Notes: generated by a model not told the origin, from the sequence alone. A stretch of 64,000 bases of DNA from Escherichia coli (GCF_009931435.1 NZ_CP043414.1), one strand, 5' to 3'. Positions 58,406-59,053 are shown, counted from the first letter of the stretch. Translations and numbers: made by a program.

Positions 58406-59053
58406 ATAAAAATCACCCAAAAAAAACAATAACCCACTGTACTCCCTGTGCTTTATAAACATAAAGTCACAACACATTCTATATTCATATTAATTAATGG
58501 CGCATTGAAAAAAATTATATTATTCTTAACTCAAATCCATTAGCTTAATAAGATTATATTCTTCACTCACAACCGTAACAAAAATAATATTATCGAAAGT
58601 TAAAGTTGGGACTATCAAATTTCGCTCATTTCAAACATACATTGTGATTTTTGCAATCATCTTAATCTTAGGGCCTATCATCATATGTTAAAATTTTGTC
58701 AATAATAGAAATGAATCTTGGTCACCTATCATGCGTTATAAATGTGCAACTGGCTTCCTGCAGATGCTCTTAACTTCTACAGCAGGATTTATACCAGCGT
58801 TTCAGAACTATCATATTTACCTTAAATGATCATTTCAGTCTTATAACACGCTCAGCCTCACAAATGGTTTACACTGTCTATTGTTTGGGTAATTTAAGTA
58901 AGTCAGCTACGATCAACCTTGAATGGGGAGCCAGCAATGGACTTAAGCCTAATCGGGTCTTCAGATTGTTTCAGAATTGTATAAAAAACAATGTATTAAA
59001 TAATCTGATTGTTTTTGGTCATAGTGTGACGCAGAAAGCAAGCCAATAAGGAA
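58406..59053. promoter_or_regulatory. Long AT-rich non-coding region upstream of the island ORF and of ybjP (divergent promoter region; putative xenogeneic-silencing target)
   Basis: About 0.6 kb with no ORF except one 61-codon frame. On the minus strand it carries two TATAAT hexamers within about 80 bp upstream of the 58477 ATG; the ybjP RBS (aaggaaa) lies at its 3' end. Confidence 0.4.

Follow-up and report, generated by a model that had tools for sequence, protein, structure and literature searches.

A two-part divergent control region probably separates ybjP from a near-silent effector-like island gene in Escherichia coli

The window analysed here is a 64 kb stretch of the Escherichia coli chromosome, and the region under study (58406-59053) is intergenic, lying between a minus-strand island gene for an effector-like pentapeptide-repeat protein and the plus-strand gene ybjP. 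The gene order in the window was amiD (55276-56106, minus), ybjQ (56103-56426, minus), a low-GC tract, ybjP (59060-59575, plus; NCBIfam NF007824 match at 1e-98, PGAP annotation in L001) and artPIQM. The guanine plus cytosine (GC) content dropped from ~0.52 to 0.26-0.38 across ~56400-59050, and at the 648-bp scale no part of the 64 kb outside this island, whose GC was 0.325 against a window median of 0.51, fell below 36% GC. The region itself had been described as AT-rich in an original prediction made from the sequence, and it was, with a GC of 0.324, which falls in the lowest 2.3% of the 648-bp windows.

The island is ~2.5 kb long (about 56524-59047) and is located between ybjQ and ybjP. When 2.9 kb around the region were compared, the tract was carried by 1122 of 5426 complete E. 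coli genomes, and the gap between ybjQ and ybjP was 125 bp in the remaining genomes; this empty site was seen in BL21, SE11, SE15 and GN02323. Two deeply divergent island alleles existed, one of the window type in ~18 genomes (at least 96% identical), with N96 and 2013C-4282 as examples, and a major allele in ~1100 genomes, which was 83-85% identical to the window and whose carriers include O157:H7 EDL933 and Sakai, O55:H7, O145:H28 and Shigella. No genuine copy of the island gene was found in the reference genomes of other species (one genome per bacterial species). The sole match in this species-wide scan was an E. coli-like contig of 2972 bp (L012, JAIJJM010000403.1) in a metagenome-assembled genome labelled 'Collinsella sp.', which consisted of ybjQ-island-ybjP DNA of the major allele and almost certainly represents binning contamination. 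In the plasmid collection, matches were present only in mislabelled chromosomes.

At the left junction the homology to the empty site faded at ~56487-56525, including a copy of AGGAAATCATC, the sequence that stands directly 5' of the ybjP ATG in K-12-type strains. At the right junction the homology resumed only at AAGGAAATGATT-ATG / AAGGAAAT, just before the ybjP ATG, and only ~12-13 nt 5' of this ATG matched the empty-site sequence. These alignments place the island precisely at the ybjP ribosome-binding site and start codon.

All transcript data used here were obtained from EDL933, which carries the major allele, and were applied to the window by homology. In EDL933, ybjP start sites were mapped by Cappable-seq at 1033012, 1033014 and 1033043, equal to -177, -179 and -208, and at least one of them was detected in seven of eight conditions (PMC10469882, Table S5); in K-12, transcription starts at -56 (RegulonDB). 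The alignment of the window with EDL933 was ungapped over 58735-59059, and the three sites mapped to 58883, 58881 and 58852 respectively, which would give a ybjP 5' untranslated region (UTR) at 58852-59059 (plus). Two -10-like hexamers, TATAAC (58842-58847, plus) and TACACT (58870-58875, plus), were invariant in all aligned alleles, and their position before the start-site equivalents makes them candidate -10 elements of ybjP. The K-12 -10 element TATTAT (L003 1686-1691, 6 nt before the -56 start) was replaced by CATGTT at the homologous window position. The prediction had held that the region must contain the ybjP promoter and that the insertion may have rewired ybjP, and both claims were borne out by homology, with the EDL933 start sites mapping inside the region where identity is 97%, transcription beginning at -177 to -208 instead of -56, the K-12 -10 degenerate and only the last ~12-13 nt before the gene shared with the empty site. 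The ybjP UTR covered ~208 of the 648 nt, so the region is not entirely ybjP leader.

The promoters and 5' UTR lie in a ybjP-proximal block (58735-59053, plus) that was 92% identical between alleles. Footprint identities are those of the window to L002, of the major allele, and within the block they were 91% at its start (58735-58799), 97% in the start-site zone (58800-58912, three differences in 113 nt) and 89% in the leader body (58913-59053), to be compared with 97% in the ybjP coding sequence and a synonymous divergence (dS) of 0.60 in the effector gene. The block was retained in L006, where an IS1 has replaced the effector gene. This genome (strain CUWW06) is a natural deletion in which IS1 takes the place of the effector gene together with its upstream half (~56530-58722), and the ybjP-proximal block is kept from about 58722. 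L008 is a recombinant whose allele type switches near 58912, which indicates that recombination also shapes the right-hand block.

The EDL933 locus tags were assigned via protein clusters, Z1095 being ybjP, Z1096 a 60-aa open reading frame (ORF), Z1097 and Z1098 the fragments of the effector gene and Z1099 ybjQ. Strand-specific RNA-seq (Landstorfer 2014, PMC4048457) covered eleven conditions, which are given below in the order LB, pH 9, pH 4, 15 °C, nitrite, antibiotics (in LB), solid medium, minimal medium, spinach, radish and faeces. Expression of ybjP, in reads per kilobase per million mapped reads (RPKM), was 40, 112, 3, 153, 175, 0, 13, 102, 45, 46 and 0, and that of Z1096 was 44, 53, 18, 235, 135, 0, 29, 44, 33, 26 and 0 (PMC4048457), so that Z1096 tracked ybjP with a Spearman coefficient of 0.92 over the eleven EDL933 conditions. 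On arrays of EDL933 in LB stationary phase, the log2 signal of Z1096 fell from 13.1 in wild-type cells to 11.3 when rpoS was mutated (Dong and Schellhorn 2009, PMC2907692), an RpoS dependence of 3.4-fold (P=0.038) measured with a signal near the top of the dynamic range. RpoS regulation of ybjP in K-12 is attributed by a citing paper to Lacour and Landini (2004). YbjP is a lipoprotein and a reported TolC partner (bioRxiv 10.1101/2025.03.19.644130), and the protein was detected in O157:H7 proteomics.

The leader contains an ORF of 61 aa (58864-59049, plus), the equivalent of Z1096, whose coding status is doubtful. The prediction had seen no convincing ORFs in the region; it was right that the region is intergenic, while this plus-strand ORF, annotated as Z1096 in EDL933, had been passed over. 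That the ybjP-proximal block encodes a real protein of 60-61 aa co-transcribed with ybjP, and is not merely UTR, is unlikely. The ORF was open in 10 of 10 alleles examined and is annotated in several records, and the -208 start site, 12 nt upstream of its ATG, was assigned to RS04965; yet the chance of no new stop arising by drift alone was 0.35, the two remaining start sites (-177 and -179) fall within the ORF, and the ORF has been dropped from the current RefSeq annotation. Ten of its 20 substitutions were synonymous against 5.2±1.9 expected (P=0.015, composition-matched permutation), and pairwise ratios of nonsynonymous to synonymous divergence (dN/dS) were 0.15-0.21, which would favour coding. 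Against this, the substitutions were distributed 2/8/10 over the codon positions, similar ratios were obtained in other frames, and the invariance of the first 48 nt would fit promoter or 5'-end constraint equally well. A Shine-Dalgarno sequence was absent. All homologues came from this same locus in E. coli or Shigella; no family, NCBIfam or PADLOC match and no remote homologue was found, and nothing matching the ORF appeared in the available supplements of the Sakai RIBOseq small-gene paper. The stretch is most likely UTR.

As for the RNA itself, an Rfam covariance scan of 56300-59700 gave no match at E<0.1, with hits at chance level only, and folding of both leaders showed no unusual stability (z-scores -0.86 and +0.32). 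A 21-nt inverted repeat (58637/58976) was dropped, as it is not kept in the major allele.

On the other side of the region, the island gene is intact in the window and encodes 589 aa (56636-58405, minus), with matches to PF13599 and PF00805 and 100% identity to an NCBI protein (P0139). The longest ORF runs over 56636-58477 (minus). The prediction had taken the ATG at 58477 as the gene start, and this has to be revised. Homologues start either at the ATG equivalent to 58405 (589 aa) or at a GTG at 58437 (599-600 aa), which is out of frame in the window allele owing to a 1-nt indel; the ATG at 58477 is therefore the start of the longest ORF only, and on comparison of homologues the gene most likely starts at 58405. 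The in-frame upstream extension (58406-58477, minus), whose alignment to the major allele has 79% identity and one gap, then most likely belongs to the 5' leader and not to the coding sequence. The indel that sets the GTG frame lies at 58419-58426, just upstream of the ATG, and makes PGAP call intact genes of the window type 'frameshifted'.

The protein distantly resembles the EspX family of enterohaemorrhagic E. coli (EspX1-EspX7), in that its central pentapeptide-repeat domain precedes a P-x-(K/R)-W-T-x-x-L-(I/V)-N motif, and the gene is likewise low in GC, outside prophages and called 'putative type III effector' in one record. The similarity to EspX1 was weak, with 22% identity over 155 aa (E=0.002) and the shared motif after the repeats. 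The gene is not among the named Sakai EspX1-7, and ECs0949 and ECs0950 are off that list. Between the window and the major allele the gene had 73% protein identity, with dS 0.60, dN 0.15 and dN/dS 0.25, a ratio which indicates that the protein is under purifying selection. The synonymous divergence of 0.60 was found at one chromosomal site whose flanking core genes are 97-100% identical, which implies either that the two alleles were acquired independently from different donors or that recombination has maintained a very old polymorphism. In one D-serine-adapted isolate of enterohaemorrhagic E. coli, an insertion in the Asn-codon run of Z1097 (NNK411 -> NNNK*) was reported (PMC7486766, Table 1), consistent with repeat slippage in an AT-rich gene.

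Transcription of the effector gene in EDL933 was close to nil. Over the eleven conditions, in the order given above, Z1097 had 1, 0, 0, 2, 1, 3, 0, 1, 1, 0 and 0 RPKM, and Z1098 had 1, 0, 0, 3, 3, 11, 0, 2, 0, 1 and 0 (PMC4048457), which means 0-3 RPKM for both fragments in all ten conditions other than LB with antibiotics, where the values were 3 and 11. In the gene-associated Cappable-seq table of EDL933 (PMC10469882, Table S5), there was no row for the effector gene (RS04970) between RS04965 and RS04985. The suggestion that the gene may be silent in the laboratory fits the EDL933 RNA-seq, and is supported in this way for the other allele only. Z1098, the 3' fragment (equivalent to 56636-57046), rose to its 11 RPKM, with a log fold change (logFC) of 5.1, only in LB with antibiotics, where ybjP and Z1096 were at 0; the counts were low, and the rise could come from read-through, antisense transcription or relief of silencing.

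The effector-proximal half contains two perfect minus-strand TATAAT hexamers, 58519-58514 and 58558-58553, which are 37-42 and 76-81 nt upstream of the 58477 ATG. They were thus present at the distance claimed for them, while their number was at chance level (2, where dinucleotide-preserving shuffles of the region led to an expectation of 0.72 on that strand, P=0.17) and their conservation was lacking. The first was missing from the major allele; the second was kept in L002 and L005 and fell within a 9-bp deletion in L007, L010 and L012. The second belongs to a promoter-like site, TTGTTA-17-TATAAT (58553-58581, minus; 10/12 in the scan), whose -35 hexamer was not conserved between alleles, and promoter-like sites as a whole numbered 20 over 56300-59300, against 14.3±3.7 expected. 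With chance-level counts, no conservation and no entry for the gene in the EDL933 start-site table, the hexamers are poor candidates for the promoter. An A-run abutting the first hexamer (58508-58514) differed in length, A6 to A8, between alleles that share at least 99% identity elsewhere.

A better candidate was a conserved core at 58585-58660 (minus), which contains TTGATA-N18-GATAAT (58618..58589; 10/12 in the scan). The core was 89.5% identical between the window and L002, with a Jukes-Cantor distance (JC) of 0.11, and both of its hexamers were invariant in 9 of 9 aligned alleles. The segments on its two sides, 58478-58584 with both TATAAT hexamers (75% identity) and the variable 58661-58734 (66%), had JC of 0.31-0.45. 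The core was ~five-fold more conserved than the synonymous sites of the effector gene, and is likely to be the promoter or an operator of this gene, with a predicted start near 58582. Judged by conservation, 58406-59053 contains two footprints, one per side.

The divergence of the flanking segments at JC 0.31-0.45 would also be expected if the effector-proximal half had no function, the gene decaying and its upstream DNA drifting with a dead promoter. Near-zero expression in EDL933 fits such decay, and so do the interrupted major-type copies (402 aa in EDL933, L005; 62 aa in L007; 378 aa in L012) and the one copy lost to IS1 in L006. But the gene was intact (589 aa) in the window, L001, L008, L009, L002 and L010, the database holds thousands of intact members of 589-600 aa, and neither dN/dS of 0.25 over dS 0.60 nor a core ~five-fold more conserved than synonymous sites is what drift would leave, which makes decay very unlikely.

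The nucleoid protein H-NS prefers AT-rich acquired DNA, as reported by Navarre (2006) and Lucchini (2006). A tract of 2.5 kb at 32% GC is a typical H-NS substrate in E. coli. The same preference is described in PMC4720273 and PMC4764244. Compared with known xenogeneic silencing by H-NS in E. coli and Salmonella (LEE, bgl, proU), the island is alike in its 32% GC, its patchy distribution and a gene almost untranscribed in culture beside expressed core genes, and it is unlike in giving no curvature or nucleation-motif signal and in having one end transcribed as the ybjP leader. The DNA had been called probably curved, and a crude test gave no support for this, with 9 A/T tracts against 13.4±2.4 expected and no AA/TT phasing at 10-11 bp. 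The high-affinity H-NS motif (TCGATAAATT-like, at most two mismatches) had one match in the region (58596), with 1.5 expected. Motif and curvature are supportive features of H-NS silencing, not strictly defining ones. Nothing on this locus was found in the supplements of Fukui 2016. For an accessory tract of 2.5 kb and 68% A+T, H-NS-type silencing is a plausible and the most economical explanation of the near-zero transcription.

It is also possible, though rather unlikely, that the effector promoter escapes H-NS silencing and is simply weak or dependent on an activator such as a virulence regulator, the AT-richness being the composition of the donor. This would account for the lack of enriched nucleation motifs and curvature signals, and for the activity of the neighbouring ybjP and ybjQ promoters, which lie within this AT-rich island or on its border; the conserved 76-bp core could be an activator site, and Z1098 reached 11 RPKM only in LB with antibiotics. 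On the other hand, 2.5 kb at 32% GC is what H-NS typically binds, and silencing is in keeping with a near-zero signal over eleven widely differing conditions. Both models could hold together, as anti-silencing by an activator is common.

Taken together, the region is probably a divergent two-part intergenic control region, with an active promoter and leader of ybjP on one side and the upstream region of a near-silent effector-like gene on the other, the H-NS step being inferred. The ybjP-proximal ~210 nt (58852-59059) would be the ybjP 5' UTR, transcribed from the island-borne promoters with TATAAC and TACACT; these would replace the K-12 ybjP promoter, now 2.5 kb away and degenerate, and RpoS would go on stimulating ybjP, with robust expression in ordinary culture. 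For the EDL933 allele this part was observed, and the 97% identity around the start sites extends it to the window. The effector-proximal ~450 nt would be the upstream region and leader of the gene starting at ATG 58405, in which the likely control element is the core (58585-58660, TTGATA-N18-GATAAT) and not the TATAAT hexamers. The effector promoter would be essentially off in laboratory and environmental conditions, as the RNA-seq of the EDL933 allele suggests, most likely through H-NS-type silencing of the 68% A+T island, and would be relieved only by some signal or regulator. Extrapolation to the window allele is limited here by the 23% divergence of the effector-proximal half.

Several points weigh against this reading. 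Over 58406-58734 the EDL933 allele shared only 77% identity with the window, and the EDL933 effector gene is a split pseudogene. Greater activity of the window allele is possible, as its TTGTTA-17-TATAAT site is better than the EDL933 counterpart. Pseudogenes may be omitted from the start-site table, and a weak divergent start site is possible. The H-NS motif and A-tract phasing were not enriched in the region, and the strains with H-NS chromatin immunoprecipitation that were checked (K-12, SE11 and SE15; Higashi 2016) are island-free, the empty site being confirmed in SE11 and SE15. The ybjP leader is actively transcribed, which means that the right end of the island, at least, is not silenced. 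For ybjP, neither -10 assignment reached the threshold of the sigma-70 scan.

A more far-reaching idea is that the ybjP-proximal block is an island-borne regulatory module, either a translated Z1096 of 60-61 aa or a cis-acting leader RNA, which controls YbjP in about one fifth of E. coli, O157:H7 and Shigella included, and that the adjacent 76-bp core is an operator coupling or insulating the silent effector gene; this is speculative and quite unlikely. The favoured divergent control region is a previously undescribed instance of known phenomena and not a new kind of element, and would not surprise a specialist.

The arrangement at ybjP resembles promoter displacement or capture by inserted DNA, as the island parts ybjP from the K-12 promoter and the start sites lie within the island. 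Unlike an insertion sequence with an outward promoter, the island has no transposase or terminal inverted repeats and only a direct repeat matching at 9 of 11 positions, and the RpoS dependence of ybjP is apparently retained, not altered. This imperfect direct repeat consists of AGGAAATCATC on the left (56513-56523, plus) and AGGAAATGATT on the right (59049-59059, plus), the latter being the ybjP ribosome-binding region, and the empty site has one copy directly before the ybjP ATG. At 11 nt it could be a chance match, is too short to prove a mechanism, and was missed by the repeat search, in which neither terminal inverted repeats nor long direct repeats were found at the island. A 7-nt exact repeat, AGGAAAT, was rejected as a proven target-site duplication, being too short. 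Beyond the right junction, the 5' 280 bp of ybjP (59060-59340), signal peptide included, were only 75-85% identical to the BL21 allele (L004), with MRYRSLSLLIP against MRYSKLTMLIP in the signal peptide, and 93-100% identical to GN02323, likewise an empty-site strain; ybjP is thus mosaic, and the island haplotype enters the gene in some comparisons.

At the left junction, two ybjQ promoters were matched in the scan, TTGACA-16-TAAACT (56535-56508, minus) and TTCCCA-17-GATAAT (56494-56466, minus), which sit 5-6 nt upstream of the EDL933 start-site equivalents 56503 and 56460. The ybjQ start sites are at -78 and -34 in EDL933 (PMC10469882) and at -76 in K-12, and ybjQ had 45, 73, 20, 96, 220, 5, 39, 100, 50, 36 and 30 RPKM in the eleven conditions (PMC4048457). 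Rewiring of ybjQ, which had been suggested along with that of ybjP, was not seen in the start sites, which are unchanged (-76 in K-12 vs -78/-34 in EDL933). The -35 hexamer of the first promoter (56508-56535) lies on the island side of the junction and is closer to consensus than the K-12 sequence at that place, so the strength of the ybjQ-amiD promoter might differ despite the same start site.

The locus suggests that a small acquired island can seize the promoter of a core gene without altering its regulatory logic. In island-bearing strains, ybjP transcription would start 120-150 nt further upstream, in foreign DNA, and would still be RpoS-stimulated. The promoter or an anti-silencing site of the effector gene would best be sought at the footprint 58585-58660 and not at the TATAAT hexamers. 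With YbjP reported as a TolC partner, differences between strains in the ybjP promoter could matter for envelope or efflux physiology.

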